Below, in pieces: positions 7,578 to 46,508 of a DNA stretch of 64,000 nt. The notes beneath the pieces were generated by a model, which was not told the DNA's origin, did no database searches, and saw only the letters and a list, made by a program, of their open reading frames with translations. The stretch's first letter is position 1. The number at the start of each line of letters is the position of its first letter. The stretch lies in assembly GCA_027028505.1 (NCBI GenBank), contig JALVJE010000153.1, forward strand, positions 731 through 64,730, read 5' to 3'. Made by a program: the position numbers and the translations under genes. Source of the DNA: Bacteroidales bacterium. GTDB taxonomy: Bacteria; Bacteroidota; Bacteroidia; Bacteroidales; VadinHA17.

Positions 7578-7629
7578 AATACCCGGATAAAACGAATAAT
7601 ACGCCGGTTTTCAACTAACCAACAAAAAC

Positions 7630-9121: not shown

Positions 9122-9346
9122 AATGTGCCTCCTGTTTAGTTTTTATTTTATACTGCCGGAATTCCGTTCTTTTTGTTCCGGTAATCCAAATTTTTGTAAA
9201 AGTAAAAAATTTCCTCCGATGGTATGATATTTGCAAACTTTTTATTTTGAACAAATCCAAATAACTAAATATTTATATCTTTGCAATCCAAATGTGAAAA
9301 CACATTTTGAGAGAAAGTTAAAAGTATAATTGATAACAGAGTTAAG

Positions 9347-10976: not shown

Positions 10977-10989
10977 AGGGTGGTTTTTA

Positions 10990-11112
10990 GTTCAGAGTTC
11001 AGAGTTCACAGTTCAAAGTTCACAGTTCAAAGTTCACAGTTCAAAGTTCACAGTTCAGAGTTCAAAGTTTAGAGTTCAAAGTTTAGAGTTCAAAGTTTAG
11101 AGTTCAAAGTTT
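10990..11112. repeat. Heptanucleotide tandem array (~17.5 units, GTTCANA / GTTTAGA)
   Basis: GTTCAGA x2, then (GTTCACA GTTCAAA) x3, GTTCACA, GTTCAGA, then (GTTCAAA GTTTAGA) x3, then GTTCAAA. It fills most of the nnr-lipoprotein spacer. Confidence 0.95.
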
Positions 11113-11126
11113 ATTGGTTTGATGGG

Positions 11127-12653: not shown

Positions 12654-12812
12654 GGCTGATCCTTTTGTTCTCCCGCAAAGTTAATAAAGAAGAACGTCAT
12701 TCCCATGAGAAAAAAGAAAGATCAACGGATACAGGATTTGTCATTAAAAAAAGATAATTATTTTTGTCAGGTACAGGAACTTTTCATTCTTAACCCTTAA
12801 AACCGGCAGATC

Positions 12813-14465
12813 ATGTTCAAAGGACACCCCAAAGGATTGTATGTTGCTTTTTTTGCCAATATGGGAGAACGTTTCGGCTTCTACACCATGATGGCCATTC
12901 TTGTTCTCTTCCTGCAGGCAAAATACGGACTCTCAGCCGAGAAAGCCGGATCTGTTTACAGCACATTCTATTTTGCCATCTACGGCCTGGCCCTGCTGGG
13001 CGGGATCCTGGCCGATGTCACAGGCAAACTGATGCGTACCATCCTTTCGGGACTGGTCATCATGTTCCTGGGGTATGTGCTGATGTCCATTCCCGGTTTC
13101 GGGCTGGGGGTTTCCCTGACAGCCCTGGGGATCATCGCCTTTGGTAACGGTCTTTTCAAGGGCAACCTGCAGGCGCTGGTAGGTAATCTTTATGAAGATC
13201 CCAAATACTCCCATCTGCGCGACCGGGCCTTCACCATCTTTTACATGGGCATAAACATCGGTGCTTTCTTTGCGCCCAGCGCTGCCACAGGCGTGCGTAA
13301 CTGGTGGCTGAAGACGCACGGCCTCGGTTACAATGCCAACCTACCGCAGCTGGCACACGGTTATCTCAACGGCGAACAGATCGACCTGACCTCTTTTCAG
13401 TCCCTGGCCAACCAGGTCTCCTCTGCCCCCGTCACCGACCTGAAAGCATTCGCTTCCCATTACATCGACGTTTTCAGCCAGGGATATCACCTGGCCTTCG
13501 GCATCGCTGCCATTTCGATGGTCATCTCCCTGATCATTTACCTCGTCCTGAACAAGTACCTCCGGTACGGGGACATTGCCAACAAGAAAAAAGATGAGCT
13601 CCCGCCTTCCATGCAGGAGATCTCCCCCCAGGAGACCCGCCAACGTCTCACCGCCCTGGGCCTGGTATTCATCACGGTCATCTTCTTCTGGATGGCTTTC
13701 CACCAGAACGGCCTGACCCTGACCCTCTTTGCCCGCGACTATATCCGCGAGCATGTCTCCCGCTGGTCTTACATCTTTTTCGACCTGCGTTCATTCCTGC
13801 CCCTGATCTTTGCCATCATCGGACTGATCTATGTGCTGAACAAAAAACTGGATACCCGGTCACGTGTCATCGGCCTGGTGGTCATGGTATCCTCTCTGAT
13901 CCTCTTGTTCTATGTTGTTCAGGGATTCAATAACCAGATGCCCATAGAGCCTGAAAAATTCCAGCATTTCAATCCCATCTTTATCGTATTCCTGACCCCG
14001 GTGGTCGTCTGGTTCTTCGGATGGCTGGATAAGAAAGGCAAGGAGCCTTCCACCCCCCGGAAGATTGCCATCGGGATGTTCCTGGCGGCTGTGGCCTATA
14101 TGTTGCTGGTGATACCCTCCTTCCATCTTCCGGCGCCGAAGGTCATCGGTGATGCCGGATCGCCGGAGAGGATCTCCGAGCAATGGCTCATCTCCACATA
14201 CTTTATTCTCACCATTGCGGAACTCTTCCTGAGCCCCATGGGGATCTCCTTCTTCTCAAAAGTAGCTCCTCCCAAAATGAAAGGATCCATGCAGGGTGTA
14301 TGGCTGGGCGCTACGGCGGTGGGTAACCTGCTGTTGCAGGTAGGCACTTTTTTCTGGGTGCGTCTCGAGCTGTGGCAGGTATGGTCCATTTTCATTGCGG
14401 TCACTTTGCTCTCAGGCCTCTTTATCGTATCCATCATGAAAAAACTTGAAAAAGTTGCGAAATAA
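12813..14465 (+). CDS. Proton-dependent oligopeptide transporter (POT/PTR2 family, MFS)
   Basis: 550 aa and polytopic. N-terminal GERFGFYTMMAILVLFL (ExxERFxYY-type POT signature). Confidence 0.9.
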   Translation: MFKGHPKGLYVAFFANMGERFGFYTMMAILVLFLQAKYGLSAEKAGSVYSTFYFAIYGLALLGGILADVTGKLMRTILSGLVIMFLGYVLMSIPGFGLGVSLTALGIIAFGNGLFKGNLQALVGNLYEDPKYSHLRDRAFTIFYMGINIGAFFAPSAATGVRNWWLKTHGLGYNANLPQLAHGYLNGEQIDLTSFQSLANQVSSAPVTDLKAFASHYIDVFSQGYHLAFGIAAISMVISLIIYLVLNKYLRYGDIANKKKDELPPSMQEISPQETRQRLTALGLVFITVIFFWMAFHQNGLTLTLFARDYIREHVSRWSYIFFDLRSFLPLIFAIIGLIYVLNKKLDTRSRVIGLVVMVSSLILLFYVVQGFNNQMPIEPEKFQHFNPIFIVFLTPVVVWFFGWLDKKGKEPSTPRKIAIGMFLAAVAYMLLVIPSFHLPAPKVIGDAGSPERISEQWLISTYFILTIAELFLSPMGISFFSKVAPPKMKGSMQGVWLGATAVGNLLLQVGTFFWVRLELWQVWSIFIAVTLLSGLFIVSIMKKLEKVAK

Positions 14466-31495: not shown

Positions 31496-32866
31496 ATGGA
31501 AAAGAAAACGATCTCTCTGCTTGAGCTCAACCAAAAGATCCGGAATGTCATGGAGACGAACTTCCCCGACACTTACCGGGTAGTGGCAGAGATAAGTGAG
31601 ATCAAAGTAAATGCCCGGGGCCACTGTTATCTGGAACTGATAGAAAAGGCTCCCGACAGTGACCAGCCGGCAGCCAGGGCCCGTGCCATGATATGGGCCT
31701 ATACCTTCCGCATCCTGAAACCCTACTTCGAAACCACCACAGGACAAACCCTCACCGCCGGCATAAAAGTGCTGGTGGAAGCGGAGGTCACCTTTCATGA
31801 AGTATACGGACTGTCGCTGAACATAAAAGATATAGACCCCGCATATACTTTGGGAGAGATGGCAGTAAAAAGAAAAGAGATCATTGAACAACTGCGCAGG
31901 GAAGGTATCCTGGAGATGAACAAACAGCTCCCCTTCCCTCTGGTACCCCAGCGTATTGCCATCATCTCTTCCGAAACCGCCGCCGGATACCAGGACTTCG
32001 TTCATCAGCTGCTGAACCATCCGGGCCGTTATCATTTTGATCTGGAGCTCTTCCCTGCCATGATGCAGGGGAAAGAAGCAGGCGACACCATCATCGCCGC
32101 ACTGGAAACGATCTATAAAAGAGAAAAAAAATTTGATGTGGTGGCGATCATCCGGGGCGGAGGATCCCAGGCCGACCTGAGCAGCTTCGACAACTACAGG
32201 CTGGCTCAACATATTGCCCAGTTCCCCCTGCCGGTGATCACCGGTATCGGCCATGAAAAAGATGAGACCGTAGCTGATCTGGTGGCTTTTGCCGGACTGA
32301 AAACCCCTACAGCTGTGGCTGAATTCATTCTTGACAGGATCAGCAACTTTGAAGAAAAACTGCTTTCTCTGGCTGCAGGGATCAGCTACCGCACCAAAGA
32401 GACACTTACAGCCTATCATCAGGCACTGAAAGATCACGGCTGGAAACTGAAAGAAACCGTACAATCCCACCTGGTAACACAACACCGCAAAATGGACGGC
32501 ATCCTCCGCAAAACGGTTTATTTGTCAAAAAGCCTCCTGGAAAAAGAAAAAAACAAACTGCAACAAAGGAAACTGATCCTGAAAAAAAACGGGGAAATGT
32601 TCATCTCCCTGCATCTGCAGGATCTGATAAATGCCAGGCAGTCTATGGGCAATCTGTACAACAATAATATCACCCGTTTCAACCACCAACTGGAACTGTT
32701 CCGGCAAAGTATCACCCATCTGGATCCAGCCCGTATCCTTGAACGGGGGTACTCCATCACACACTTTCAGGGAAAAGCATTGAAGAACGGGGAAAAAGTA
32801 AAAAACGGAGATATCCTCCACACCCGGTTATATAAAGGCTCAATAACCAGCAAAGTGGTCAAATAA
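31496..32866 (+). CDS. xseA: Exodeoxyribonuclease VII large subunit
   Basis: 456 aa. N-terminal OB-fold region (VVAEISEIKVNARGHCYLELIEK) and central IISSETAAGYQDF ... IRGGGS motif. Confidence 0.93.
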   Translation: MEKKTISLLELNQKIRNVMETNFPDTYRVVAEISEIKVNARGHCYLELIEKAPDSDQPAARARAMIWAYTFRILKPYFETTTGQTLTAGIKVLVEAEVTFHEVYGLSLNIKDIDPAYTLGEMAVKRKEIIEQLRREGILEMNKQLPFPLVPQRIAIISSETAAGYQDFVHQLLNHPGRYHFDLELFPAMMQGKEAGDTIIAALETIYKREKKFDVVAIIRGGGSQADLSSFDNYRLAQHIAQFPLPVITGIGHEKDETVADLVAFAGLKTPTAVAEFILDRISNFEEKLLSLAAGISYRTKETLTAYHQALKDHGWKLKETVQSHLVTQHRKMDGILRKTVYLSKSLLEKEKNKLQQRKLILKKNGEMFISLHLQDLINARQSMGNLYNNNITRFNHQLELFRQSITHLDPARILERGYSITHFQGKALKNGEKVKNGDILHTRLYKGSITSKVVK

Positions 32867-32940: not shown

Positions 32941-34902
32941 ATGATAAAAAGGAAGGACATACTTATTTCTATTCTCTTGTTTCTGGCAGGAACAATGACC
33001 GTTTCAGCACAGGCTTTCTATCTGGACAGCCTGAACACCCGGCTCCGGACAGCGAATGATTCTGAGAAAGTTTATATTCTGTCTGATCTCTCCCGGTACT
33101 ACATGCGTTACTCTTTGCTTACCAGCATGAAACTGGCACTCGAAGCAAAGAACATCGCCGACAGTCTGGGCAGTGACCGGCTCCGTGCTGAAGCCATCAA
33201 CAGGATCGGCTCCGTACATTATCTGTTCCATAACAATGAAAAGGCTACTGCTTACATCCTCCAGGCCCTGCGTATGAGGGAAAAGCTGCATGATTCCGCC
33301 GGGATCGCTTACTCCTATACCAACCTGGCACTGATCTATGCAGCCAACAACGACTTTGATAAAGCCATTGAATACAACAACAAATCCATCGAGCTGAAGA
33401 AAAAACTGGGCCTGGAAAGCAAGATAGGGGCCAACTACAATAACATGATCAATTTCTATTCGATGAAAGGCGATCTCTCCGAGGCACTTACCTGGGGGTA
33501 CAAAACACTGGACTTCTGCAAAGAACACAACCAGATACGCAGCATCGGAGACTCCTACCTGAACATCGGCAGCGTCTACCACTGGATGGAAAACTATAAA
33601 AAAGCGGAGGAGAACTACCTTGTGTCGCTCCATATAGCCGATTCCATGAACGACACCTCGGCTATCATACAGAACCTGATCAATCTTTCTGCTGTATATC
33701 TGGATCTGAATTCACCGGCCAACTGTTACAAAATGCTCAAACGAGCAAAACCCCTGGTTTTAAAGTATGGCGACCCGATAAACATCAGGGATTTCTATGC
33801 TAATCTGTATCATTACTATCAGAAAAAGGGAGAGGTGGAAAAAGCATGGGAGAACATGAAAAAATATTCGGCCTACGAGGACTCCATCAACTCCGGTATC
33901 TCCCTTGAGAAGATCACCAACATGCAGATCGAGAACAAAGCCCAGGAATTGGAATTTCAGATCCAGACTTTAAAAAGAGACCGCATCATCAAAGAAATGA
34001 CCCTGAAAAAAGAAAGAAGAAGGATCCTTTCTTTTCTCATATTCTTCTTCCTGCTGATCTTCCTGAGTATATACATACTCCTGAGCATCCGTAAACTGCG
34101 CACCCTGAAAAAGGACCTTTCCGACAAGAACCGGAACCTGGAGGAGGCAAATAACAAACTGATGGAGTCGGAGAAAAAACTCGATTCGATGATACGCACA
34201 AAGGATAAGTTCTTCTCCATCATTGCCCATGACCTGATCAACCCTTTCCAGCCGTTGCTGGGTCTCTCCGAACTGCTGGTAACAGATATTGACAAACTGG
34301 GAGACGATGAAATAAAAAAATATGCAGGTCTGATCAAGGAATCGGCGATACGCTCCTACAACCTCCTGAGCAACCTCCTTAAATGGACACAGTCGCAGAC
34401 CGGAAGACTCTCCTACAATCCGGACGACATCTATCTTTCTGAGGTCATTGAAGAAATACTCTCGTTCTATAAAGAGAATGCCCGCATCAAGAATATCCAT
34501 CTTCTTAACCACGTGGACAGAGATCTCATTGTCTATGCAGACAGGGATCTGCTCAGCTCTGTCATCCGTAATCTGATAAGCAATGCCATTAAGTTCACCG
34601 GCCGTAACGGCTATGTAAAGATCGAAGCCAAACGTACGAACGGGTTTATAAGGGTCTCTGTCGAAGACAATGGCATAGGGATAAGCGAAGACAAGCTGGA
34701 TAAATTATTTGAACTTGCCTCTGCCACCTCCACAAAAGGTACGGAAAATGAGGAAGGCAGCGGGCTGGGTCTGATCCTCTGCCGGGAGTTCATTGAAAAA
34801 AGTGGCGGAGAGATCTGGGTACAAAGCAAACCTGGAAAAGGTACTACCTTCTTTTTCACCATACCTTGCCCGGGTAAAAAAAACAAAAAAGATCAAAAAT
34901 GA
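32941..34902 (+). CDS. TPR-repeat sensor histidine kinase
   Basis: Signal/TM segment, TPR-like repeats, coiled coil, TM helix, HisKA H-box FFSIIAHDLINPF, and HATPase N/G boxes (NAIKFT, GSGLGL). Confidence 0.87.
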   Translation: MIKRKDILISILLFLAGTMTVSAQAFYLDSLNTRLRTANDSEKVYILSDLSRYYMRYSLLTSMKLALEAKNIADSLGSDRLRAEAINRIGSVHYLFHNNEKATAYILQALRMREKLHDSAGIAYSYTNLALIYAANNDFDKAIEYNNKSIELKKKLGLESKIGANYNNMINFYSMKGDLSEALTWGYKTLDFCKEHNQIRSIGDSYLNIGSVYHWMENYKKAEENYLVSLHIADSMNDTSAIIQNLINLSAVYLDLNSPANCYKMLKRAKPLVLKYGDPINIRDFYANLYHYYQKKGEVEKAWENMKKYSAYEDSINSGISLEKITNMQIENKAQELEFQIQTLKRDRIIKEMTLKKERRRILSFLIFFFLLIFLSIYILLSIRKLRTLKKDLSDKNRNLEEANNKLMESEKKLDSMIRTKDKFFSIIAHDLINPFQPLLGLSELLVTDIDKLGDDEIKKYAGLIKESAIRSYNLLSNLLKWTQSQTGRLSYNPDDIYLSEVIEEILSFYKENARIKNIHLLNHVDRDLIVYADRDLLSSVIRNLISNAIKFTGRNGYVKIEAKRTNGFIRVSVEDNGIGISEDKLDKLFELASATSTKGTENEEGSGLGLILCREFIEKSGGEIWVQSKPGKGTTFFFTIPCPGKKNKKDQK

Positions 34903-36836
34903 CAGGAAAGATCCTCACCGGCATATTCCTTATTTGCCTGAGCCTTCCCCTGAGGGCACAGACAAATGAGGTGGACAGTCTGAAAGAGATCCTGTCAAAG
35001 AAAGTCTCTGATACCGTGGAAGTACGGGTTGGGCTTAAACTGGCCCAGGAATATCTGTTCACCAACCGGGAGGAAAGCCTCCGTTATGCATATATCGCCT
35101 ATGAGGCAGCACTCAAAACCGGGAATATCAAGGCCATCAACCAGGCCCTGCTGGATATAGGGAATGTTTACTCCGTGGAAAATGCCTATAACACAGCCAT
35201 GGAGTATTACATGAGCATCCTTAAAAATGTCGGAAAATGTAATTGCAAGGATCTCATATCAAAAGCATATATGCAACTGGGCCAGACTTTTATTGAACTC
35301 AAGCAATACGATTCCGCACAGGTGTACCTGACCCGGGCAGCTGAGCTGATGCGCAACCATAACCAGCGGCTGATGCATACAAATCTCCTTTTTATCAGTG
35401 ACGCTGAGCTGAATACCGGACAATACGATTCCGCCTATAAACATATACAGGAATCCCTGGACTGGTTCACCCGGAATAAGGATATCCGGGGGCAGGTCAT
35501 TGCTATGCAATATCTGGCCGGATATTATGACAGACTGGGCGATTACAATGAGGAAGAGAATGTACTCCTGGAGATGATCCCTCTCAGCAGAAAAGCTGGA
35601 TACAATGCTTTCCTTTGCCGGCTTTACAGCATGCTCGCAGCCACTTGCCTGAAAAAGAAAGAGCCATCCAAAGCACATACTTACCTGAACAAAAGTACTG
35701 CATGCATGAAAAAACATGACCTCCCGAAAGTCAGGCTAAAGAACATGAAGCTCTTCTCGGAATATTATGCCACCACAGGCAACTATGACAAAGCAATAGA
35801 ATACACCAATAATTATCTGGATCTCAACGACTCCCTGCGGACAGTCCAACTGAACAACGTAAAAAAACTTTTTGACATCCGCTACGATATGGAGACCAAG
35901 ATCAAATCCCTTGCTCTCCTTAAAAAAGACAACCATATCCGTGAGCTGACCTACAAAAAGAACCTGTTCTTCAAGAATATCACCCGGATATTGCTTATTT
36001 TCTTTGTTGTGATCTTCCTCATCCTCTTCTATGTTTATCTTGAGCAGAAAAGATCACATAAGAAACTGCTGGAAGCCAACCGCAAACTGGAGACTGTACA
36101 TAAAGAACTGGAAAAGAAGAAACTTCAACAAGAACAGGAGAACCAGATCCGCAATAAACTTTTCATGATCCTGGCCCATGATCTGATCAATCCTTTCAAT
36201 GCCCTTCTGGGATTTGCAGAGCTTCTTTCAGAGGAGATCCATAACTTCGAAAGGAAAGATATCAAGAGACACAGCGAATTTATCTTCCAGGCAGCCAAGC
36301 AGCTCCACTTCCTCCTCGAGAACCTTCTGCACTGGGCCCGCATCCAGACCAACCGGATACAATTCCAGCCCACTTATTTCGAGATGAACAAAGCCATGCG
36401 GAATGTCGCGGAAATGTACAGATATATGGCAGAGAAAAAACAGATCAATCTGATGCTACAGTATACAGATGATCTGATCGTATATGGGGATGAGAATATG
36501 ATCACAGTGGTGCTTCGCAACCTCCTCCACAATGCTATAAAATATACGGATAAACTCGGAGTGGTTACCATGGAGGCAACCCGTCAGGATGGCCAGGTGA
36601 CAGTGTCGGTAACAGATACAGGTTGTGGCCTCACTGAGGAAGATAAAAAGAAACTCTTCAATCTGGAATATCATTTCACAAGAAAAGGAACGTCAGGCGA
36701 AGAAGGAACAGGTCTGGGACTGATCATCATCAAAGAGTTCCTCTCTTACCATTCCTCCTCCCTGAAGATCGAAAGCTCGCCCGGTGAGGGCAGCCGGTTC
36801 TCCTTTTCTCTTGCTGTCACCAATAAAACCCAATAA
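34899..36836 (+). CDS. TPR-repeat sensor histidine kinase (paralog of the preceding gene)
   Basis: Same architecture as the upstream gene. H-box LFMILAHDLINPF, NAIKYT, GTGLGL. 4-nt ATGA overlap with the upstream kinase. Confidence 0.87.
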   Translation: MTGKILTGIFLICLSLPLRAQTNEVDSLKEILSKKVSDTVEVRVGLKLAQEYLFTNREESLRYAYIAYEAALKTGNIKAINQALLDIGNVYSVENAYNTAMEYYMSILKNVGKCNCKDLISKAYMQLGQTFIELKQYDSAQVYLTRAAELMRNHNQRLMHTNLLFISDAELNTGQYDSAYKHIQESLDWFTRNKDIRGQVIAMQYLAGYYDRLGDYNEEENVLLEMIPLSRKAGYNAFLCRLYSMLAATCLKKKEPSKAHTYLNKSTACMKKHDLPKVRLKNMKLFSEYYATTGNYDKAIEYTNNYLDLNDSLRTVQLNNVKKLFDIRYDMETKIKSLALLKKDNHIRELTYKKNLFFKNITRILLIFFVVIFLILFYVYLEQKRSHKKLLEANRKLETVHKELEKKKLQQEQENQIRNKLFMILAHDLINPFNALLGFAELLSEEIHNFERKDIKRHSEFIFQAAKQLHFLLENLLHWARIQTNRIQFQPTYFEMNKAMRNVAEMYRYMAEKKQINLMLQYTDDLIVYGDENMITVVLRNLLHNAIKYTDKLGVVTMEATRQDGQVTVSVTDTGCGLTEEDKKKLFNLEYHFTRKGTSGEEGTGLGLIIIKEFLSYHSSSLKIESSPGEGSRFSFSLAVTNKTQ

Positions 36837-36838
36837 CC

Positions 36839-37063
36839 ATGGCAAAGAAACAACTTACCTATGCCGAAGCTATTGCTGAGCTTGAAGAGATCCTTGCCGG
36901 AATAGAAAAAGGGGAACCCGATGTCGACGATCTGACACGCCATGTTAAAAGAGCTGCTTATCTCCTACGCTACTGCCAGTCAAAACTGCACAAAGCCTCC
37001 TCCGAAGTGGAAGATATCCTGAAAAGCCTGGAAGAAGATACGGAAACAGCAGAGGAAAGCTAA
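36839..37063 (+). CDS. xseB: Exodeoxyribonuclease VII small subunit
   Basis: 74 aa. LTYAEAIAELEEILAGIEKGEPDVDDL is typical of XseB. Starts 2 nt after the kinase stop. Confidence 0.85.
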   Translation: MAKKQLTYAEAIAELEEILAGIEKGEPDVDDLTRHVKRAAYLLRYCQSKLHKASSEVEDILKSLEEDTETAEES

Positions 37064-37122: not shown

Positions 37123-38985
37123 TTACTCCTTCTTCTTCATCTTATGCGGCTGGAGCATATGCTCGGGGGAGAGCAATTTATCCAGTTCCTTCTTCGAAAG
37201 GAGTTTCTTCTCCAGTACCAGATCATAAACGCTTCTCCCTGTAGCGCCGGCCTCTTTGGCCAGCATGGAGGAGGTCTCGTACCCCAGCACCGGATTCAGG
37301 GCCGTCACAATGCCTATACTATGCTGCACCATCTCACGGGTCCTCTCAGCATTGGCCGTGATCCCCTCGATGCAGCGGCGTCGCAGGGTTTTCATACCAT
37401 TTTTCAGCATCTCCAGCGACTCAAAAAGGCTCTGTACGATCACCGGCTCCATAACATTCAGCTCCAGTTGTCCCGCCTCACCGGCCAGGCTCACCGTCAG
37501 GTCATTGCCGATCACCTTGAAGGCAACCTGGTTGACCACCTCGGGGATCACGGGATTCACTTTGCCCGGCATGATGGACGAGCCGGGCTGTACGGCCGGA
37601 AGATTAATCTCGTTCAGACCGGCCCGGGGGCCACTGGAAAGGAGACGCAGGTCGTTGGAGATCTTGGAAAGTTTTAAGGCCAGACGCTTAAGAGCAGAAG
37701 AATACATCACAAAAGCCCCGGTATCCTGGGTAGCCTCCACCAGATTTTTGGCCGTCTTCACCTCCAGGCCTGTGATCTGACGGAGGTATTTGACTACCAA
37801 CCGAGAATAGTCGGGATCTGCATTGATGCCCGTACCGATAGCAGTCCCCCCCATATTAATCTCTAAAAAAAGATCCACATTCTCGTTCAGCCGCTGTATC
37901 TCCTCGTTCAGCGTTACAGCATACGCCTCAAATTCCTGCCCCAGAGTCATAGGTACAGCATCCTGAAGCTGGGTCCTGCCCATCTTCAGCACATTGGCAA
38001 ACTCCTCCGACTTCTTCCTGAAAGCATTGGCCAGCTCCTCCAGAATAATGATCAGGCTCTGGTTGCTGAAGATCAATGCCAGTTTGACCGCCGTGGGATA
38101 AGCATCGTTGGTCGATTGGGAAAGGTTTACATGGTTATTGGGGTGACAATACTGGTATTCCCCTTTTTTATGTCCCATGATCTCCAGCGCCCTGTTAGCG
38201 ATCACCTCATTGGCATTCATGTTCGTAGAGGTACCTGCTCCTCCCTGGATCATGTCCACCACAAAATGCTGGTGGTACTTACCCTTGATGATCTCATCAC
38301 AGGCCTGTACAATAGCCTTGTACACAGCATCCTCCAGTAATCCCAGTTCATGATTGGCCTCGGCCGCCGCCTTCTTCACCATGGCCAGCGACTCAATAAG
38401 CACGGGATAGAAACTGAGATTCACACCGGTGATGTTGAAATTCTCCATGGCTCGCAGTGTCTGTATACCGTAATACGCCTCCGCCGGGACTTCCCTGTAT
38501 CCCAACAGATCGTGTTCCTTTCTGGTATTACCCGACTCATACTGTGCTGCCGCATGCAGGATCATCGCATTTGAATATTTCATCCTGCGTGAGATCACCC
38601 GGATAACGTTAGAAAAGATCCTGACAGCTGTTTTGCCATGCTTAAAGAAATAGTCCCTGTCAAGGATGAGTACCTGCGAATCCTCCACAGCCCTGGCGGA
38701 AGTAGAATGAACATCGCCGGCAATGGCACCTTCCCCCAGAAAATCCCCCTCGTGGAAAGTGACCAGCTTCTTCTCCGCCCCGGTAGGCAATACCTTGATC
38801 AGCTCCACCTCTCCCTTGTATATGATGAACACCTCCTCGCGGGGATCATGTTCGCGGAACAGGAACTCCCCACTCCTGTATCTTCTTTCCTCCAACTCAG
38901 TCGCCAGTAATTGCAACTCATCCTCTTTCAGACCCTTGAACAACTCTATGGCCTTGATGAACGGTAAGATCTCTTTTTTATCCAT
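37123..38985 (-). CDS. aspA: Cyclic-nucleotide-binding-like domain fused to aspartate ammonia-lyase (class II fumarase/aspartase family)
   Basis: The N-terminal ~140 aa have a CAP/cNMP effector-domain pattern (FKGLKEDEL...GDFLGEGA...ARAVEDSQVLIL). The remainder aligns by eye with E. coli AspA (DLLGYREVPAEAYYG, QGGAGTSTNMN, signature GSSIMPGKVNPV). Confidence 0.9.
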   Translation of the reverse strand: MDKKEILPFIKAIELFKGLKEDELQLLATELEERRYRSGEFLFREHDPREEVFIIYKGEVELIKVLPTGAEKKLVTFHEGDFLGEGAIAGDVHSTSARAVEDSQVLILDRDYFFKHGKTAVRIFSNVIRVISRRMKYSNAMILHAAAQYESGNTRKEHDLLGYREVPAEAYYGIQTLRAMENFNITGVNLSFYPVLIESLAMVKKAAAEANHELGLLEDAVYKAIVQACDEIIKGKYHQHFVVDMIQGGAGTSTNMNANEVIANRALEIMGHKKGEYQYCHPNNHVNLSQSTNDAYPTAVKLALIFSNQSLIIILEELANAFRKKSEEFANVLKMGRTQLQDAVPMTLGQEFEAYAVTLNEEIQRLNENVDLFLEINMGGTAIGTGINADPDYSRLVVKYLRQITGLEVKTAKNLVEATQDTGAFVMYSSALKRLALKLSKISNDLRLLSSGPRAGLNEINLPAVQPGSSIMPGKVNPVIPEVVNQVAFKVIGNDLTVSLAGEAGQLELNVMEPVIVQSLFESLEMLKNGMKTLRRRCIEGITANAERTREMVQHSIGIVTALNPVLGYETSSMLAKEAGATGRSVYDLVLEKKLLSKKELDKLLSPEHMLQPHKMKKKE

Positions 38986-39021: not shown

Positions 39022-39879
39022 TTACTGAACGGGCAGATCCAGATGTACAGAAACCAGATCTTCCAGAGGATACCTGATGATGCGGGTCAGAAGGATATCG
39101 TGCTCCCGGGCGGTCTTCTCCAGGATCTCCCGGAAATGCCAGGCCACCGAGCCGGTTGCTCTCACCTCTTTCTTCCCGGCTTTTCTGCAAAGAGGCTCCA
39201 GGTCGACCCGGAACAGTCTCCGGAACTCATCCTCCACGATCCCCCGGATAGCCCTGACGCCGATATGTTCAAGAAGGAACGGTGCAAATGACGCAAGAAA
39301 ATAATTGGGTTTCTCCTCCAGGTAAACTTTCTCCTTGATCTTCTGACGGGACAGACCTGTTTTTTCCCGGAAAGCCGAGACCACCTCTTGCGGCAACATA
39401 TTATCGAACCAGGCTTTTACAAATCGCAATCCCAGCACAGCCCCGCTTCCATGATCTCCCAGGAGATATCCCACGGTCATGCTTTTTGCCGTGATCTGTG
39501 TACCGTCCCAGATCCCTGCATTGGTACCGGTACCCAGGATCAGTGCGACACCCTTTTCTTTTCCGTAAAGAGCCTTTGCAGCACCGGTAAGATCATCCTC
39601 CACCGTGACCACAGCCCGCGGGAAGAGCTCCTGCAAGGCCTCTTCTGCCTTCCGTTTAGCCGCCTCCCGGTCACACCCCGCTCCGTAATAATGTACACGC
39701 TTGACGTTCCCGGCATCAAACCGGTTCTCCCTGATCCAGGAGGCCAACTCCTCTTTCCAGGGGATCTCTGTACTGAAATAAGGATTATACCCTGCGGTCC
39801 TTACATACCTGACATCTCCGGGACCTTCTGCCAGGGCCCACTCTGTTTTGGTTGAACCGCTGTCGGCGATCACGATCAT
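39022..39879 (-). CDS. BadF/BadG/BcrA/BcrD-type ATPase, N-acetylglucosamine kinase-like
   Basis: N-terminal IADSGSTKTEW phosphate-1 motif; LGTGTNAG; 285 aa. Confidence 0.8.
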   Translation of the reverse strand: MIVIADSGSTKTEWALAEGPGDVRYVRTAGYNPYFSTEIPWKEELASWIRENRFDAGNVKRVHYYGAGCDREAAKRKAEEALQELFPRAVVTVEDDLTGAAKALYGKEKGVALILGTGTNAGIWDGTQITAKSMTVGYLLGDHGSGAVLGLRFVKAWFDNMLPQEVVSAFREKTGLSRQKIKEKVYLEEKPNYFLASFAPFLLEHIGVRAIRGIVEDEFRRLFRVDLEPLCRKAGKKEVRATGSVAWHFREILEKTAREHDILLTRIIRYPLEDLVSVHLDLPVQ

Positions 39880-39940: not shown

Positions 39941-42900
39941 TCAGGTACTACTCTCTTCCTCTTTTATCAGAAACTTTTCGATAAGCGACAGCATCTTCCG
40001 CGGTTGGATGGGTTTTGCAATGTATTCATCGCAGCCCGCCTGGATGATCCGTTCGCGGTCTTCCGACATGGCATACGCTGTCTGGGCAATGATCGGAAGA
40101 TCCGGCCTGAACTTCTTGATCAGCCTGGTAGCCTCATAACCATTGAGCACAGGCATCTGGATATCCATCAGTACCAGGTCAACATCTTCATGCTCCCTAA
40201 GCAGGTCGAGCGCCTCTTTTCCGTCGTACGCCCGCACCAGCACTGCTTTTTTAACACTCAGTACAGCCTTGAGGAACTCGTAATTCGAGTCGTTGTCCTC
40301 GGCGATCAGGATCTTCTTGTCTCTCCAGTCGGTAACCGTCTTTTTTTCTTCCTTGATCTCCTGCCGTCCTTCCGGGATCTCCACGTCCTTATCCAGCGGG
40401 AGCTCCACAAAAAAAGTAGAGCCCCTTCCCGGGTCAGACTCTACCTGGATAGACCCACCCATCAGCTCCACCAGATTGCGCGACACCCAAAGACCCAATC
40501 CCGTACCCCCGTATTTCCGGGTGGAAGAATCATCGGCCTGACGGAACCGTTCAAAAATAACCTTTTGCTGGTCTTTGGGTATACCGATGCCCGTATCCCT
40601 GACAAAGAAACGGATCATCGTATCATTGGCTGTCAGACGGTAACCAAATTCGATCTCCCCCTTCTCTGTGAATTTTACCGAATTGTTCAGGATGTTCTGT
40701 AAGATCTGTTTCAGTCTGAAAGAATCCACATTGATCATAAATTCCCCGTCAAAAGGCACAGTAAGGGACAGTTCTACCTCTTTGCCATTGACCAGGAGGT
40801 CCCGTTTTATGCTCGTGTACAGTTCTTTCAGCAGACTGGTGATGTCGATCTTATGAGGGATGATGCGAATATGACCGGCCTCGATCTTGGCCACGTCGAT
40901 GATATCATCGATCAGATTGAGCAGGGCCTGGCTGCTCTGATTGATAATGGCAAAATATTCCTCCCGGAGCTGGGGCTCCAGCGTGTCGGAATGCAACATC
41001 CCCGTAAAACCGATAATGGCATTCAGGGGCGTCCTGATCTCATGGGACATATTGGCCAGAAAAGCCGTTTTGAGCCGGTCCGATTCTTCCGCTTTTTCCT
41101 TCGCCCTGATCAGCTCCAGCTCGGTCTTTTTTCTCTCAGTTATATCTTCCTTGATCGCCACATAATAAGCGATCTCTCCTTTTTTATTCCGTATCCCGGT
41201 GATCGAGGCATGTTCCCAGAAGATCTCACCGTTCTTTTTCTTGTTCTCAAATTCACCCTGCCAAACCTCCCCTTTTGTAATGGTCTCCCACAGGTTCTTG
41301 TAAAACGATTCCGGCAGGTTACCTGATTTCAGGATGCGTGGATTCTGCCCTATGGCCTCTTCTGCCGTATAACCCGTGACCTCGGTAAACTTGGGATTGA
41401 CATATTCAATGGTTCCATCAGGTGTGGTAATGACCACCGACACGGGAGAATTAAAGATAGCCCCTGACAACACCTGCAGCCGCTCTTCATACTGCAGCCG
41501 CTCGCTCAGGTCTGAGATAGCTACCAGCACCATGTCCCATGAGAGCTCATGCCCCGGCACCAGTACCCATTTGATGATCACTTTTTTCTTCTTGCCATAT
41601 TTGGTCGTGGAAGTGATCTCCGCCTCGTATACGTTCTCCCCTTTCAGGAAAGTGCTCAGCAACTCTATGAACGTTTCCACAAACTCTTCCGAAAGTTCTT
41701 CCTTTCTGTATGTGTCCGCCAGATCGTCCAGAGAATCCACCTCAAAGAATTCCAGCGACTTCTGGCTGGCCTCTAAAGGCACTACCATCCGGATCATCTT
41801 CTTCACCTCCTCAGGATGCGCTAAAAGATAAGCAGGGACGTTCTCCACTCCCAGATCCCCCAGCTGCCAGAGATATTCCCTGATAGCAGAATAATCCTCG
41901 CTCATCAGGGGCAGAGGGGAGTATTCGAGAATGGTACGGTATTTCAGTTCCCGCTCCAGGATCTCCCGTTCACTCCCTTTTTCCTGGGTAATGTCCCGTA
42001 TGAAAAGCCAGATGTTTTTAGCCCCGTTATCAGCACCTTTCCACTCCAAAGCATGTACTTCCGTGATAACCATGCCGCCGTCAGCCTGCATGAACTCCTT
42101 CTCATACTTTCTCTCTGCACCATCCTCAAGCAGTTCGCTGAAGATCTTTTTTTCCAGCGGTTGCCAGAAAGAAGGGGTCACATCCCAGTACCTCTTCTTC
42201 CCGATGCTATCCTCTTCATACCCCAAAAGTTTTCTCACAGAATGATTGCTCTCCAGGATATTCCCTTCAGTATCAATAACCAGAATCCCTTCGTGCATAT
42301 TCTCCAGGAGATCCCGGTACCTGTGTTCCGAACGCCGCAGGCCCTCCATGATACGGTTTTTCTCGGTCACCTCTGTGAACCAGAGGATCACATTGCCCTC
42401 AACAGAAGAATAATAACTGTTCACCAGACAATCCCGTATGACCCCGTCAAGACAATGCAACGTCACCTCAGCGACAGTATTGTTCTCATCACCAGTCAAT
42501 ATCTTGTTTAGTGACAGTTTACCGGATATATCCGCATCCCGGAATACAGGAACGTCCCGGATACTTTTCCTCCTGAGCTGATCAGGATCAAGCCCGATCT
42601 TCTCCGACAAGGACCTGTTGATCTGTATTAACTTCATCTCCTGGTCCAGCACAGCGATACCGAGGGGTGAGAACTCCAGGACCTCCCACATGAAAGCCTC
42701 CATGTCCCGGATCTTCTTCTCCGCTTCCAGTTTTTCATCAATAAGCGTAATGAAATTGAGGGTGGCCGGTTTCCCCTGCCAGTCGATGCGGTATCCGGTG
42801 ATCCTCAGCCAGCGCTCTTTTTTACCCGGCAATACCATACGGAAAACATAAGGGACATTTTCCAACTCACCGGCCAGGCGCTTCTCACGCTTCTCCCTTA

Positions 42901-43474
42901 TGAGATCCCGGTCATCAGGATGAATATATTCCCAGAATGAATGTTCACGAAGGTATTTTGCTCCCTTTCCGAAAAGTTCCGTAACCCTGTCATTGAAAAA
43001 TACAAGATGATCCCCCTGTGTCACGATAATGATTTCTTCAGCCGAACGAAAGATCCTCTCCAACAACCCGTAATCCGGAAGATCTGTTTTCTGCTCTCTT
43101 TTTTGTTTTCTTTCCAGTAAAGAAAGCATGAACAGGAATTGCTCCTCATCCTCCGGTTCCAGATAGCTCACCCGCATACCCCGGGAGAGTTGTCCTTCAG
43201 GAAGACGGGGATGCCCCACCAGAACCAGCGGAGGAAAATTATCTTCCGCCCCCTCAAAGGAAGGGATCTCCACCTCCGGAAAGATCACCAGCAGGGATGC
43301 ACTTTCTTCCCTGATCATCTTTTGCAATGCTCCTCCGTCGGTTATACTCCTTATCTCAACAGCAATCCCCTGCTCCCGCACCAAAGATCTCCAGCGCCCG
43401 GAAAGAGCTGAAGCCCCCTTATTCTCTAAAAATATAACAACAGATACCTCATTCATAGTCCGGGGATTGATCAA
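39941..43474 (-). CDS. Multi-PAS hybrid sensor histidine kinase / response regulator
   Basis: 1177 aa. Several PAS-like blocks. H-box FLANMSHEIRTPLN. HATPase (GTGLGL). C-terminal receiver (ILIAEDNDSN ... LMDIQMPVLNG). Confidence 0.9.
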   Translation of the reverse strand: MINPRTMNEVSVVIFLENKGASALSGRWRSLVREQGIAVEIRSITDGGALQKMIREESASLLVIFPEVEIPSFEGAEDNFPPLVLVGHPRLPEGQLSRGMRVSYLEPEDEEQFLFMLSLLERKQKREQKTDLPDYGLLERIFRSAEEIIIVTQGDHLVFFNDRVTELFGKGAKYLREHSFWEYIHPDDRDLIREKREKRLAGELENVPYVFRMVLPGKKERWLRITGYRIDWQGKPATLNFITLIDEKLEAEKKIRDMEAFMWEVLEFSPLGIAVLDQEMKLIQINRSLSEKIGLDPDQLRRKSIRDVPVFRDADISGKLSLNKILTGDENNTVAEVTLHCLDGVIRDCLVNSYYSSVEGNVILWFTEVTEKNRIMEGLRRSEHRYRDLLENMHEGILVIDTEGNILESNHSVRKLLGYEEDSIGKKRYWDVTPSFWQPLEKKIFSELLEDGAERKYEKEFMQADGGMVITEVHALEWKGADNGAKNIWLFIRDITQEKGSEREILERELKYRTILEYSPLPLMSEDYSAIREYLWQLGDLGVENVPAYLLAHPEEVKKMIRMVVPLEASQKSLEFFEVDSLDDLADTYRKEELSEEFVETFIELLSTFLKGENVYEAEITSTTKYGKKKKVIIKWVLVPGHELSWDMVLVAISDLSERLQYEERLQVLSGAIFNSPVSVVITTPDGTIEYVNPKFTEVTGYTAEEAIGQNPRILKSGNLPESFYKNLWETITKGEVWQGEFENKKKNGEIFWEHASITGIRNKKGEIAYYVAIKEDITERKKTELELIRAKEKAEESDRLKTAFLANMSHEIRTPLNAIIGFTGMLHSDTLEPQLREEYFAIINQSSQALLNLIDDIIDVAKIEAGHIRIIPHKIDITSLLKELYTSIKRDLLVNGKEVELSLTVPFDGEFMINVDSFRLKQILQNILNNSVKFTEKGEIEFGYRLTANDTMIRFFVRDTGIGIPKDQQKVIFERFRQADDSSTRKYGGTGLGLWVSRNLVELMGGSIQVESDPGRGSTFFVELPLDKDVEIPEGRQEIKEEKKTVTDWRDKKILIAEDNDSNYEFLKAVLSVKKAVLVRAYDGKEALDLLREHEDVDLVLMDIQMPVLNGYEATRLIKKFRPDLPIIAQTAYAMSEDRERIIQAGCDEYIAKPIQPRKMLSLIEKFLIKEEESST

Positions 43475-43518
43475 CAGGATGACCGGTTTAATTCCTGCTT
43501 CAATTTTTTTACATTAAC

Positions 43519-43686
43519 CCAAAATCAGCAATAGAAAATCGCAAGCGCTTTCTATTGGTGATCGATTAAGGACTTCATCGGTTTTGGCTATTCACCAAAA
43601 CCGTGAAATCCTAGATCGGGGTTAATCCCAGCTAACGCATTAGTTCAGCTAATTCTTAGCTTCCTAATGCGTAATCTGGGATTAAC
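43519..43686. repeat. Three consecutive perfect hairpins / dispersed intergenic repeat modules (left flank of the TonB-receptor cassette)
   Basis: H1 is CAATAGAAA/TTTCTATTG (43529-43557). H2 is CGGTTTTG/CAAAACCG (43579-43603). H3 is a 66-nt hairpin with three stem segments, GTTAATCCCAG, ACGCATTAG and AGCTAA (43621-43686). Confidence 0.85.
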
Positions 43687-43816
43687 TTACTTTTTTCTTA
43701 CACAAACCTACTCTTTTTTGTTGTAAAGATACAAAGGAAGCATGAAAAAACCCAAAAAGCATTCTTCTCAATAGCCAGTCTGGCTTTTTTCAGGTCAGAT
43801 AGGTCAAGACCTTTCT

Positions 43817-43846
43817 AAAAAAAAGGGAGCCGGGCTTCCGGCTCCC
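43817..43846 (-). terminator. Intrinsic terminator downstream of the TonB-dependent receptor
   Basis: On the minus strand, stem GGGAGCCGG / CCGGCTCCC (9 bp, 4-nt loop) followed by a T8 run. Confidence 0.8.
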
Positions 43847-44102
43847 TCCTCAGCATCATGTGTCATTCTTTAACTTAAACCTAAAATTTAACTTACCAAA
43901 CTTTGGCTCTACGAAGAATAGTGTTCTTAATGTTACCTCAATAAAAATAACGATTTTCTTTATAAAATGTTACAAGTATGAAAAAAAATTTAAAAAAAAT
44001 ATTCCTCTTATACATACAGCATTTAAATACAATGCCTTACAAAAGACATAATTCTTCTGTTCCTGCCGTATATACATACAGGATCCGTATAAAATGCAAA
44101 GA

Positions 44103-46508
44103 TCAAAATTCCAGGTTGATCCCTGCCATAAAATGGATCCCTGCCTGGGGGAAATAACCATCCATCACTTTGTGCTGATCGTTTTCATAATACTGATAAA
44201 CCCAGGCGTTGGTTTCGTATTTCACATTGAAGAGGTTTTGTATGGTTCCTCTGATCTCCAGTTTTTTGAAGATACCGGTCCTGATATGCAGGGAGAGGTT
44301 GAGATCATTGAGAAAATAGGGATCCAGCCTCCTTTCTTCACTGGAAGTATTGTCAATATACTGCTTCCCTACGTAACGGGCCAGCCAGTTCACATCCAGC
44401 ATTCCAAAGAACCGGTATGTAAAAGTATTGTTCGCGATCACCCCGGGGGAAAAAGAGATGTCCGTAGTGCCCAGATAAAAGGAGCGTTGTGACCAGGTAT
44501 CCCAGTCGTCCACATATTCGGTAAAATTCAGGATCTTGTTACGGCTCAGGGTAATATTGGCATTCCATGAAAAATTTTGTGTTATTTGTGCCATACCGGT
44601 GATCTCAAGGCCCAGACGGTAGCTTTTCGGCACATTGGTCATGATGGGGATACCCACATCGTTGATCTTGCCGGTCATCACCAGTTGGTCTTTGTAATTC
44701 ATGTAATACAGGTTCGCATGAAAAGTAGCTACTCCTGCCTTCAGGGCCATTCCCGCCTCCAGGTCACGTAACACCTCGGGTCTGGGCTCTGGCCCCTCTG
44801 CAGGAGCTTCCTTGAAATCATACCGTGTCGGTTCCCTGTGTGCCACGGCAAAAGAGGCATACAACGACGACCGGGAGGAAAGATCCCAGGTGATCCCCGC
44901 CTTGGGGTTGAAAAAAAGATAATGGTGGGTCTGCGTAAGATCCCGCTGATCGTCGTCGGGACCCTCCATCCTGTAAGCGATCCCTCGTAACTGAAGATCG
45001 GCATAAAGATACATGCCGGAGATCAGTTCATAATCCGCTTTGGAGTATATGTTGTATTCCTGCTTTAACCCTTTGTTGTCATACCACTGGTGACCTTTTT
45101 CCCCGTTGCTGAAATACCGGGCCCAGATGACCGTGCCGTAATGAGCACCATCATAATAATTCCACCCTCCTCCCGTATTAAGAGAAAGACGGGACCTGTT
45201 CCATTTCAGATTGCCGGTAAGTCCATACATATCATTGTTAAGCCATTTGCGCCGTATCAGATCGGTAGTGGTAATGGTATCTCCCGCCGGCAGGATCACA
45301 TCATCCAGAAGATAATAGGACAGATCCTGGTCCTCCTTGTATTGCTCGTAATATCCCTTCCCCTTGATATAGAACACCGCCAGATTCAGCCAGAGCGGCC
45401 GGGCAAACTCTTTGGAATAAAAAAGCTGCAGATGGTTCTGCAGGTAGTTGTCGGTTTCATTGTCATAATAGCGGACATTCCCCTCCTCATCAGTATATTC
45501 GCCAATTCCATTGTAGCGGCGGTTGGTCTTCAGCATATACCCCGGCACACCATCCCATGCCTGATAGGTCTTTTCCTTGCCGGCCATCACCACCAGCCGG
45601 ACAATATCCTTTTTTTTGCTGTACCAGGCCCCCGTAAAAGCCAGGGAGCCCAGATCAGAGGAAGCCCGGTCGATATACCCGTCAGAGACGATCTTCGAAA
45701 GACGTGTATCAAAGGAAAATCCTTTTTTCAGCAAACCGGATCCCAAAAACAGGGTGTTCCTGAAAGTATTAAATGAACCGCCAAAGGAGGAGATCGCGGC
45801 ATAAGGATCCTTCTTCAGCGAAAAGGTGTGGATGTTAACACTGGCCCCGAAGGCTCCGGCACCATTTGTAGAAGTGCCCACGCCACGCTGTACCTGAATG
45901 TCCGACACAGAAGAAGCCAGGTCGGGCATATCCACCCACCACACCCCGTGACTCTCCGGGTCGTTCTGGGGAATACCGTTGATGGTCACATTGATACGGG
46001 ACAGGTCGGTGCCCCTTATCCGGAAAGCCGTATAACCCACACCCGCACCGGCATCAGAGGTCACCACAACAGAAGGAAGCGACTTGAGGATATACGGCAT
46101 GTCCTGCCCGTTATTCTTCTCTTTCACCTCCCTCTCCGTTACATTGACATAGGGCACCGGCACCTTGTCACCGGCACGGACACCCGACACCACCACCTCG
46201 TCGGTGAGGATGTCGGAAACAGACAGGCTTATATCCACCACGAGATCTCTATCGGCCGTGATCTTTTTTTCATACGACTCATAACCAACATAGCTGACAC
46301 GTAATGCATAATCACCCTCCGGCACACGCTCGATCTTAAATTCGCCGTTATCGCCGGTGACCGTTCCCAGATATGTGCCTGCCAGCATTACATTCGCTCC
46401 GGGCAGGGGTTCCCCCCCTTCGTCGGTCACCCGCCCGCTGATGCGGACCTGAGAGAAAAGCATGATCCCCCAGAACAGGAACATCCCAACAGAAATCAAC
46501 TTCTTCAT
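44103..46508 (-). CDS. TonB-dependent outer-membrane receptor with N-terminal carboxypeptidase-regulatory-like domain; probably thiamine-related cargo
   Basis: Signal peptide, CarbopepD_reg-like GRVTDEGGEPLPGANV, plug and 22-strand barrel pattern, C-terminal ...AGINLEF. A TPP riboswitch lies directly upstream. Confidence 0.9.
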   Translation of the reverse strand: MKKLISVGMFLFWGIMLFSQVRISGRVTDEGGEPLPGANVMLAGTYLGTVTGDNGEFKIERVPEGDYALRVSYVGYESYEKKITADRDLVVDISLSVSDILTDEVVVSGVRAGDKVPVPYVNVTEREVKEKNNGQDMPYILKSLPSVVVTSDAGAGVGYTAFRIRGTDLSRINVTINGIPQNDPESHGVWWVDMPDLASSVSDIQVQRGVGTSTNGAGAFGASVNIHTFSLKKDPYAAISSFGGSFNTFRNTLFLGSGLLKKGFSFDTRLSKIVSDGYIDRASSDLGSLAFTGAWYSKKKDIVRLVVMAGKEKTYQAWDGVPGYMLKTNRRYNGIGEYTDEEGNVRYYDNETDNYLQNHLQLFYSKEFARPLWLNLAVFYIKGKGYYEQYKEDQDLSYYLLDDVILPAGDTITTTDLIRRKWLNNDMYGLTGNLKWNRSRLSLNTGGGWNYYDGAHYGTVIWARYFSNGEKGHQWYDNKGLKQEYNIYSKADYELISGMYLYADLQLRGIAYRMEGPDDDQRDLTQTHHYLFFNPKAGITWDLSSRSSLYASFAVAHREPTRYDFKEAPAEGPEPRPEVLRDLEAGMALKAGVATFHANLYYMNYKDQLVMTGKINDVGIPIMTNVPKSYRLGLEITGMAQITQNFSWNANITLSRNKILNFTEYVDDWDTWSQRSFYLGTTDISFSPGVIANNTFTYRFFGMLDVNWLARYVGKQYIDNTSSEERRLDPYFLNDLNLSLHIRTGIFKKLEIRGTIQNLFNVKYETNAWVYQYYENDQHKVMDGYFPQAGIHFMAGINLEF

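Follow-up and report, generated by a model that had tools for sequence, protein, structure and literature searches.

A conserved fusion of a CRP-type sensor domain to aspartate ammonia-lyase in Bacteroidales, with a non-canonical putative ligand-binding pocket

Introduction

Here we describe a gene of a Bacteroidales bacterium that encodes an aspartate ammonia-lyase (aspartase, AspA) preceded by a sensor domain of the kind found in the transcription factor CRP. The gene lies at 37123..38985 (-) of the window, by which we mean the whole 64-kb stretch of contig JALVJE010000153.1 (assembly GCA_027028505.1) that was analysed, and is delimited by the listing of open reading frames (ORFs), by its Pfam and NCBIfam assignments and by the same layout in the 120 best-matching protein clusters. 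The gene is real, and its architecture, hitherto uncharacterised, is conserved and brings together two well-known modules. By analogy with CRP, we lean modestly towards the view that the protein is a ligand-gated aspartase that would signal through a CRP-like C-helix, the binding of a ligand, the pairing of the helices and the sense in which activity would change all being predicted. The pocket of the sensor departs from the canonical cyclic-nucleotide-binding (CNB) domain at two positions, both of which are fixed throughout the family, and the nature of the ligand is weighed below.

Results

The fusion is encoded by a single, uninterrupted ORF with an ATG start (620 codons plus stop), giving a protein of 620 amino acids in which Pfam recognises three domains: cNMP_binding (PF00027; residues 33-114, E = 1.9e-18, 66.6 bits against a gathering cutoff of 27.5), Lyase_1 (PF00206; residues 164-493, E = 2.5e-101) and FumaraseC_C (PF10415; residues 559-611). 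The domain scan therefore confirms the combination of cNMP_binding and Lyase_1 that had been proposed in an earlier reading of this DNA, hereafter the original prediction. In public annotation the fusion proteins are called 'aspartate ammonia-lyase' and nothing more.

The enzyme half (residues 154-620; 37126..38526 (-)) is a complete aspartate ammonia-lyase body. Residues 155-619 score 746.5 bits against the aspA equivalog TIGR00839 of NCBIfam (cutoff 681.2), the class II fumarase equivalog fumC_II reaches 503.5 bits and stays under its cutoff of 664.75, and the best solved-structure match of the fusion is the aspartate ammonia-lyase 6wng, with 671 bits over residues 152-615 (464 residues). 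The catalytic SS-loop signature of the fumarate-lyase superfamily, GSSIMPGKVNPV, can be read from the sequence at residues 468-479 (37549..37584 (-)). All positions from G468 to V479 are invariant in an alignment of 66 family members, as are T252 to N257 and S289 to D294, and the catalytic motifs TSTNMN, SQSTND, GRTQLQDAVP and GSSIMPGKVNP are unchanged in every one of these sequences. Judged by its sequence, the enzyme half is an AspA family member in which every family feature tested at this level is present, and the fusion is predicted to be active as an aspartase (L-aspartate <-> fumarate + NH4+). The complete AspA-type body of the original prediction thus stands, on the strength of the equivalog cutoff and the invariant motifs; its N-terminal block had been placed near residue 150 and needs to be moved slightly, since the body starts at residue ~154 and the block itself, DLLGYREVPAEAYYG, occupies residues 159-173.

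The same architecture is found well beyond this genome. A search of 5.8 billion protein clusters, from which the 120 best matches were taken, returned PF00027, PF00206 and PF10415 in all 120, in proteins of ~618-625 amino acids that share 95-69% identity with the query and stem from NCBI, JGI, ENA and Logan assemblies. A genome scan was run over one genome per GTDB species with residues 1-175 (the sensor plus the junction) as the query, and at least 80 species-representative genomes encode this part of the fusion; 525 genomes scored positive in all, but this is a ceiling, since one of the search patterns picks up plain AspA as well. The carriers, at least 80 in number and nearly all uncultured metagenome-assembled genomes (MAGs), are without exception labelled Bacteroidales, Bacteroidia or Bacteroidota, with labels that include Lentimicrobium, Tenuifilaceae, Williamwhitmania and Rikenellaceae-labelled bins. 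The fusion also occurs in complete genomes, among them OY762280.1, OY760934.1 and JAXHMP010000001.1. The closest match among the genomes is Bacteroidales bacterium S015_12, with 97% identity over residues 1-175. Of 80 loci, 78 encode the CNB part and the AspA part in one uninterrupted reading frame. Two full-length homologues from the protein-cluster search, P0012 (NOY36811.1; 76% identity) and P0044 (71%), are labelled 'Chlorobi bacterium' and 'Thiohalospira sp.', respectively; these labels outside Bacteroidota are explained either by horizontal transfer or by MAG contigs that were binned wrongly.

The protein sequence is conserved across the junction AAQYESGxTRxEHDLLG as well, and even divergent contig-end fragments, with sensor identities of 34-53%, still cross the junction (AAQYxSGxTRxEHDLLG) into AspA. 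Pairwise identities of the sensor half and of the enzyme half are correlated with r = 0.90 over 7,260 pairs, the sensor having diverged 1.9 times faster than the enzyme, a pattern that points to a single fusion that has since been inherited vertically. It is against these data that the possibility of an artefact has to be held, i.e. that a Crp-like fragment and an aspA gene were joined by an assembly error or a sequencing frameshift, the latter a concern already voiced in the original prediction, or that the N-terminal part is not translated. The ORF is continuous, the ~620-residue layout recurs in 120 independent clusters, the related loci are contiguous and in frame with only two exceptions, the junction is conserved and the two halves co-evolve. 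The test for a frameshift came out negative, the fusion is genuine, and an artefact of either kind is extremely improbable.

A word-indexed search with the N-terminal 157 residues gave 13 matches only, all of them contig-end fragments of the same fusion. When 50%-identity representatives were searched exhaustively with residues 1-150, no ~620-residue representative appeared, probably because the fusions cluster under plain AspA representatives. The divergent fragments returned by the latter search are the source of the 26 divergent members that were used to assess conservation.

Preceding the enzyme, the sensor starts with N-terminal helices and an eight-stranded CNB beta-barrel (residues 1-116; 38638..38985 (-)), as delineated by Pfam, AlphaFold2 (AF2) and Foldseek. 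In the AF2 model the barrel has a pLDDT of 80-93, with strands at residues 32-36, 41-43, 51-57, 60-65, 71-77, 96-99 and 103-109, and is followed by a short helix (111-115), a long helix (117-146/148) and then the first AspA strands (154-167). Foldseek against the PDB gives Thermus thermophilus CAP (4ev0) as the top match (E = 6e-12, TM 0.65), together with the CNB-B domain of PKG I (34-35% identity, root mean square deviation 1.5-2.0 A), Mycobacterium tuberculosis CRP (3i54) and Corynebacterium glutamicum GlxR (4cyd), and the Foldseek probability is 1.00 to CAP, PKG and CRP structures. As modelled, the sensor is a genuine CAP-effector (CAP_ED) fold. Pfam, the AF2 model and Foldseek agree on this assignment for the N-terminal ~150 residues, and the alternative considered in the original prediction, that this region is something other than CAP_ED, fails.

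Profile alignment with hhalign sets the sensor on Escherichia coli CRP with a probability of 95% (CRP numbering checked against known residues). The alignment is ungapped from residue 93 to 148, with the long helix on CRP residues 91-137, and pairs G84-E85 with CRP G71-E72, H93 with R82, S94 with S83, R98 with R87, F113 with F102, R133-R134 with R122-R123, S138-N139 with T127-S128 and A145-Y149 with the CRP hinge. Since A145-Y149 align to the hinge, the aspartase body starts at the position of the DNA-binding domain of CRP, making the protein, in effect, a CRP whose output domain has been exchanged for an enzyme. Pfam finds no helix-turn-helix domain in the fusion, the AspA sequence coming directly after the helix, and because the winged helix-turn-helix DNA-binding domain is missing the fusion is not a CRP/FNR-family regulator.

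The stretch that connects sensor and enzyme is the part of the N-terminal region that tolerates the least change. The long C-helix (residues 117-148; 38542..38637 (-)), which has a heptad pattern and, as read from the AF2 model and the hhalign alignment, ends at the place of the CRP hinge, is joined to the first AspA strand by a short conserved linker, Y-E-S-G-x (residues 149-153; 38527..38541 (-)). Y149 and S151 never vary among 121 sequences, conservation of E150 and G152 is 90% or higher, and the divergent members, too, keep Q148 and Y149. Helix and linker together (residues 117-150) have a mean conservation of 0.83, the highest of the N-terminal region, compared with a mean column conservation of 0.71 in the barrel. 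The helix consensus FSNIxRVISRRM...N...AAQYESG, of which FSNIxRVISRRM is near-invariant, runs straight into the AspA sequence TRxEHDLLG. Hydrophobic residues occupy the a and d positions of the heptads at 0.62, versus 0.17 at other positions, and in the hhalign alignment the helix has hydrophobic residues opposite CRP L113, L116, M120, L124 and V131, which belong to the dimer interface of CRP.

In CRP, cyclic AMP (cAMP) stabilises the central coiled coil and the output domains are re-oriented (PMC11550324). If the fusion works similarly, a small ligand would enter the pocket between the cassette of the beta-barrel and the long C-helix, and its binding would alter the conformation or pairing of this amphipathic helix; within the aspartase tetramer, the helices of adjacent subunits probably pair as a two-helix coiled coil. 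The change would then reach the first beta-strand of the enzyme via the nearly invariant linker of 5-6 residues and alter the N-terminal domain of AspA, a contributor to the inter-subunit active sites, with the result that activity is switched. The connection is short, conserved and probably rigid, which speaks for mechanical coupling and against a loose tether.

The phosphate-binding cassette of the sensor, DFLGEGAIAGDVHSTSARA (residues 81-99; 38689..38745 (-)), is non-canonical. Both hhalign against CRP and phmmer against PKG I CNB-B place His93 where the cassette Arg (CRP R82, PKA R209) is expected, followed by S94-T95-S96-A97; an alternative phmmer alignment, to a Toxoplasma CNB domain, puts S94 at this place, and Arg is found in no register. 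The replacement of the cassette Arg (His/Ser-Thr-Ser-Ala), which the original prediction had taken from a by-eye alignment, is thus upheld, His93 being family-wide. In the 121 full-length members R49, K64, D81, F82, L83, G84, E85, G86 and H93 are invariant, as are T95, A97, R98, R133, R134 and N139. Most of this signature survives in the 26 divergent members, which have 34-53% domain identity: R49 and H93 are each kept in 23/26, E85 and the G84-E85 pair in 25/26, R98 (as R or K) in 25/26 and R134 in 26/26.

The second departure is Arg49 (codon at 38839..38841 (-)), which the PKG alignment places in the beta2-beta3 loop. Using phmmer, it aligns to the Gly of PKG 'RGDTFFII', i.e. to the conserved Gly of this loop (PKA RIalpha G169). 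In canonical domains that Gly packs directly on the cassette Arg (R209), with which it is co-conserved (Kannan et al., PMC2246266). The sensor therefore fails two CNB hallmarks, the cassette Arg (now His93) and its partner, the beta2-beta3 Gly (now Arg49), and keeps the Gly-Glu that contacts the ribose 2'-OH as G84-E85. The equivalent of PKA A202 is Ser or Ala in the family, not Glu, and the beta5 Arg with which PKG reads guanine aligns with the variable position 75. Read from the alignments, the replacements of Gly by Arg49 and of Arg by His93 look like a linked change at positions that touch in canonical domains, both now invariant. Because of this contact, and because Glu85 is invariant, the anion/ribose site may have been rebuilt rather than lost, with a guanidinium now supplied from the neighbouring loop. 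Separately, four proteins of ~870-980 amino acids that consist of four CNB repeats only (P0188, P0135, P0211 and P0256) have one repeat with a His-for-Arg cassette (e.g. GERSLLSGEPHSTSAVA), so the His variant is not unique to the aspartase fusion.

Since the Gly-Glu pair, the Ser/Thr after the Arg place and the Arg-Arg pair of the C-helix are all kept, we somewhat favour a nucleotide-type ligand that is held non-canonically, whether a cyclic nucleotide or another ribose-phosphate compound related to it. By phmmer and Foldseek alike, the nearest sequence and fold relatives of the sensor are true binders of cAMP or cGMP, and its sequence matches include two solved CNB-regulated fused enzymes, the Pat acetyltransferase (4orf) and the EAL enzyme Bd1971 (6hq*). 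A special case, nested partly within this reading, is that of a canonical cAMP- or cGMP-regulated aspartase in which His93 is simply tolerated. Besides the ligands of its best sequence and fold matches, the retention of Glu85, of S94/T95 and of the C-helix Arg pair speaks for it, and so does Ser/Ala at the PKA A202 place, where kinetoplastid PKAR has a Glu that clashes with the phosphate. The guanine-reading Arg of PKG is matched by a variable position, and the genus Bacteroides is reported to lack cAMP; taken together, we consider the canonical version improbable.

Several points weigh against ligand gating as we propose it, and in particular against a cyclic nucleotide as the signal. CNB-like domains without the cassette Arg are reported to be unresponsive to cAMP (PMC11550324, citing Kannan 2007), and this Arg is absent from the sensor, where His93 takes its place. 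Bacteroides thetaiotaomicron has no cya or crp homologues and Bacteroides fragilis no detectable cAMP (PMC6989115), although this absence holds for the genus Bacteroides and not necessarily for these environmental lineages. There is no cyclase gene in the 64-kb window, and none recurs beside the fusion gene in 80 loci. Furthermore, the AF2 monomer places the junction (residues 135-190), and likewise several inter-subunit regions of the enzyme, at low confidence, which is not surprising for a monomer model of a normally tetrameric family built from a shallow alignment. Against this background we regard it as a serious possibility, with prospects somewhat short of even, that the His93/Arg49 pair marks a new kind of CNB pocket that senses something other than cAMP or cGMP, e.g. 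a carboxylate from which carbon/nitrogen (C/N) status is read or, alternatively, a non-cyclic nucleotide or nucleoside phosphate.

A rival to the nucleotide reading would be a sensor for a non-nucleotide metabolite of C/N status (2-oxoglutarate, a C4-dicarboxylate or an amino acid), comparable to NtcA with 2-oxoglutarate. CNB-fold domains that bind other ligands have typically lost the cassette Arg, and such ligands include heme in CooA, chlorophenolacetate in CprK and 2-oxoglutarate in NtcA (PMC11550324); in kinetoplastid PKAR, nucleosides are bound by CNB-fold domains (PMC10959531). The basic residues R49, H93, R98, R133 and R134 are invariant and lie in or near the pocket, and both the lack of cAMP in Bacteroides and the lack of a cyclase near the gene would fit. 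A C/N metabolite would also make physiological sense, because GlnB, a sensor of nitrogen status, stimulates the aspartase of E. coli (bioRxiv 10.1101/2021.03.01.433382), which thus stands under the 2-oxoglutarate-sensing PII system. The invariant G84-E85 argues the other way, being the ribose 2'-OH contact of true binders of cyclic nucleoside monophosphates. In NtcA and FNR, which are non-nucleotide sensors of the CRP family, the ribose-contacting Glu has been lost. R98, R133 and R134 are Arg in CRP as well (R87, R122 and R123) and so give no specific sign of a carboxylate, and the closest neighbours in sequence and structure are all genuine cAMP or cGMP binders. On this evidence a non-nucleotide ligand seems unlikely, though well worth keeping in view.

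The sensor could also be ligand-free and play a structural part, be it through extra oligomerisation via the C-helix, constitutive autoinhibition or a pH element built on His93. KCNH channels have comparable ligand-free CNB-homology domains. The missing cassette Arg and the position of helix and linker as the most conserved N-terminal part are in line with this idea, and the CNB domain of family 2B encapsulins, in which the Arg is replaced, does not bind cAMP (PMC11550324). It is difficult to reconcile with R49, E85, H93, T95 and R134 staying fixed down to 34% domain identity while surface positions drift, and neither the ribose-contacting Gly-Glu nor the paired R49/H93 change would be expected of a purely structural element. 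We hold a structural role to be quite improbable, and return to the gated aspartase with a nucleotide-type ligand as the interpretation that we prefer.

The genes around the fusion gene include no functionally telling operon partner. The conserved order consists of a convergent xseB, histidine kinases and an xseA ~5.5 kb away, as well as a trypsin-like protease and a BadF-like ATPase; it reflects vertical inheritance and agrees with a single fusion followed by vertical descent. Genes for a cyclase, an asparaginase, a Dcu-type transporter or a PII protein do not recur in the related loci, so the neighbourhood yields no clue to the ligand.

In the window the genes for the exonuclease VII subunits are split, with xseA at 31496-32866 (+) and xseB at 36839-37063 (+), and between them lie two tandem TPR-domain histidine kinase genes (32941-34902 and 34899-36836 (+), with a 4-bp overlap). 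In 11-20 related loci, too, the fusion gene is followed by a convergent xseB, the kinases and xseA. On the other side, 36 bp upstream of the fusion gene and on the same strand, is a 285-residue ORF (39022-39879 (-)) with no Pfam match even at E 1e-3, the N-terminus of which (MIVIADSGSTKTEW) we take to resemble an ATPase of the BadF/GlcNAc-kinase type; 12 related loci likewise have homologues of this ORF upstream of the fusion gene, mostly at a distance of 4-5 kb. Beyond it lies a hybrid sensor kinase gene with a predicted TTG start (39941-43474 (-); 1177 amino acids with several PAS domains, HisKA, HATPase and a receiver), and only the nearest relatives (loci L001, L003 and L015) have close homologues of it upstream of their fusion genes. 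Between this PAS kinase gene and the gene of a TonB-dependent receptor (44103-46508), the G+C content of the intergenic DNA drops sharply to 0.35 at 43500-44000, versus ~0.49 in the flanks. Among loci L005-L062, 22 related loci encode a ~280-residue trypsin-like protein with the motif GNSGGP ~150 bp upstream of the fusion gene and on the same strand; this protein is absent from our window.

The wider gene content is that of an anaerobic Bacteroidales genome, with a sorting domain of the type IX secretion system, TPR histidine kinases and a CarboxypepD_reg TonB receptor. At 151-3598 (-) a PFL-like glycyl-radical enzyme (787 amino acids) stands beside a radical-SAM activase (334 amino acids), a pair that marks an anaerobic lifestyle. 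Genes for a DPP-IV family peptidase, an M20 peptidase and a POT-family peptide transporter form a peptide-catabolism cluster at 5223-14465, in keeping with a fermentation of amino acids from which the fusion enzyme would obtain its aspartate. A scan for sigma70-type promoters and terminators gave counts at background, the sigma70 consensus being unsuited to Bacteroidota promoters.

Discussion

In this study we have described an aspartase of Bacteroidales that carries a CRP-type sensor in front of a complete catalytic body. Because aspartase both liberates ammonium and provides fumarate for anaerobic respiration, it sits at a branch point of carbon and nitrogen in peptide-fermenting anaerobes. 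If the sensor gates the enzyme, the flux through this branch point would be switched directly by a small molecule and not by transcription alone, which would constitute a new class of output for the CNB/CRP module and a new mode of regulation for the fumarate-lyase superfamily. Should the pocket prove to be of a new kind with another ligand, the fusion would be the first enzyme of this superfamily to be directly gated by a fused CNB-fold sensor, and a built-in equivalent of the PII control of aspartase in an order whose best-studied genus has no cAMP signalling; with a non-nucleotide ligand it would, likewise, be the built-in counterpart of GlnB control of the E. coli enzyme. Given that Bacteroides is reported to lack cAMP, the ligand of the fusion would show what CNB-fold domains sense in Bacteroidales. 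The invariant His93/Arg49 pocket also offers a clean natural variant for the study of how CNB domains change their ligand specificity, for which kinetoplastid PKA is the sole well-studied comparable case. Finally, aspartases are industrial biocatalysts, and a ligand-switchable version could be useful.

The original prediction had stated that no characterised aspartase or fumarase was known to it with such a sensory domain, and none came to light in the literature searched, which was limited: no paper in it links a CNB domain to an aspartase, a fumarase or Lyase_1. The CNB survey of Kannan (2007) does not mention lyases.

Compared with AspA itself (EC 4.3.1.1; 6wng, 1jsw and 1j3u), residues 154-620 of the fusion correspond to the full-length enzyme, including the SS loop and FumaraseC_C, and the difference lies in the extra sensor domain of 150 residues. 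The best-matching solved aspartases and fumarases have ~460-510 amino acids, their alignments start within the first ~45 residues and they have no comparable N-terminal domain. Control of E. coli AspA includes activation by substrate and Mg2+. With the effector domains of CRP/CAP proteins (E. coli CRP, 4ev0, 3i54 and 4cyd) the fusion shares the beta-barrel and the long amphipathic C-helix, the Gly-Glu ribose contact, the Ser after the Arg place and the Arg-Arg pair of the C-helix. It differs from them in lacking the winged-helix DNA-binding domain, in having His93 for R82 and in carrying Arg49 in the beta2-beta3 loop, and the places of the adenine-contacting T127/S128 of CRP are taken by S/A138 and N139.

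The closest parallels in design are mycobacterial Pat (4orf and 4onu) and Bd1971 of Bdellovibrio (6hq2-6hq7), in which a single N-terminal CNB domain controls the attached enzyme, as is predicted for the fusion. In Pat and Bd1971 the CNB domain retains the canonical Arg, and its ligand is cAMP or cGMP. Their outputs are a GNAT acetyltransferase and a cyclic di-GMP phosphodiesterase, whereas that of the fusion is, judging from its family, a tetrameric lyase of central metabolism. Kinetoplastid PKAR (6flo and 6hyi), a structural neighbour of the sensor at Foldseek ranks 24 and 45, resembles it in the replacement of the cassette Arg by a polar residue and in the retained Gly-Glu, and its cassette has been termed a 'ribose-binding cassette' (PMC10959531). 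In PKAR the residue corresponding to A202 has become a Glu that clashes with the phosphate (PMC10959531), whereas the fusion has Ser or Ala at this place and the additional Arg49, so that phosphate or another anion could still fit its pocket. Lastly, the GlnB (PII)-AspA pair of E. coli provides a precedent, tied there to nitrogen status, for post-translational, signal-dependent control of aspartase of the sort that we predict here. GlnB is a separate, trans-acting PII protein of unrelated fold, whereas in the Bacteroidales fusion the sensor is a CNB domain covalently attached to the aspartase.

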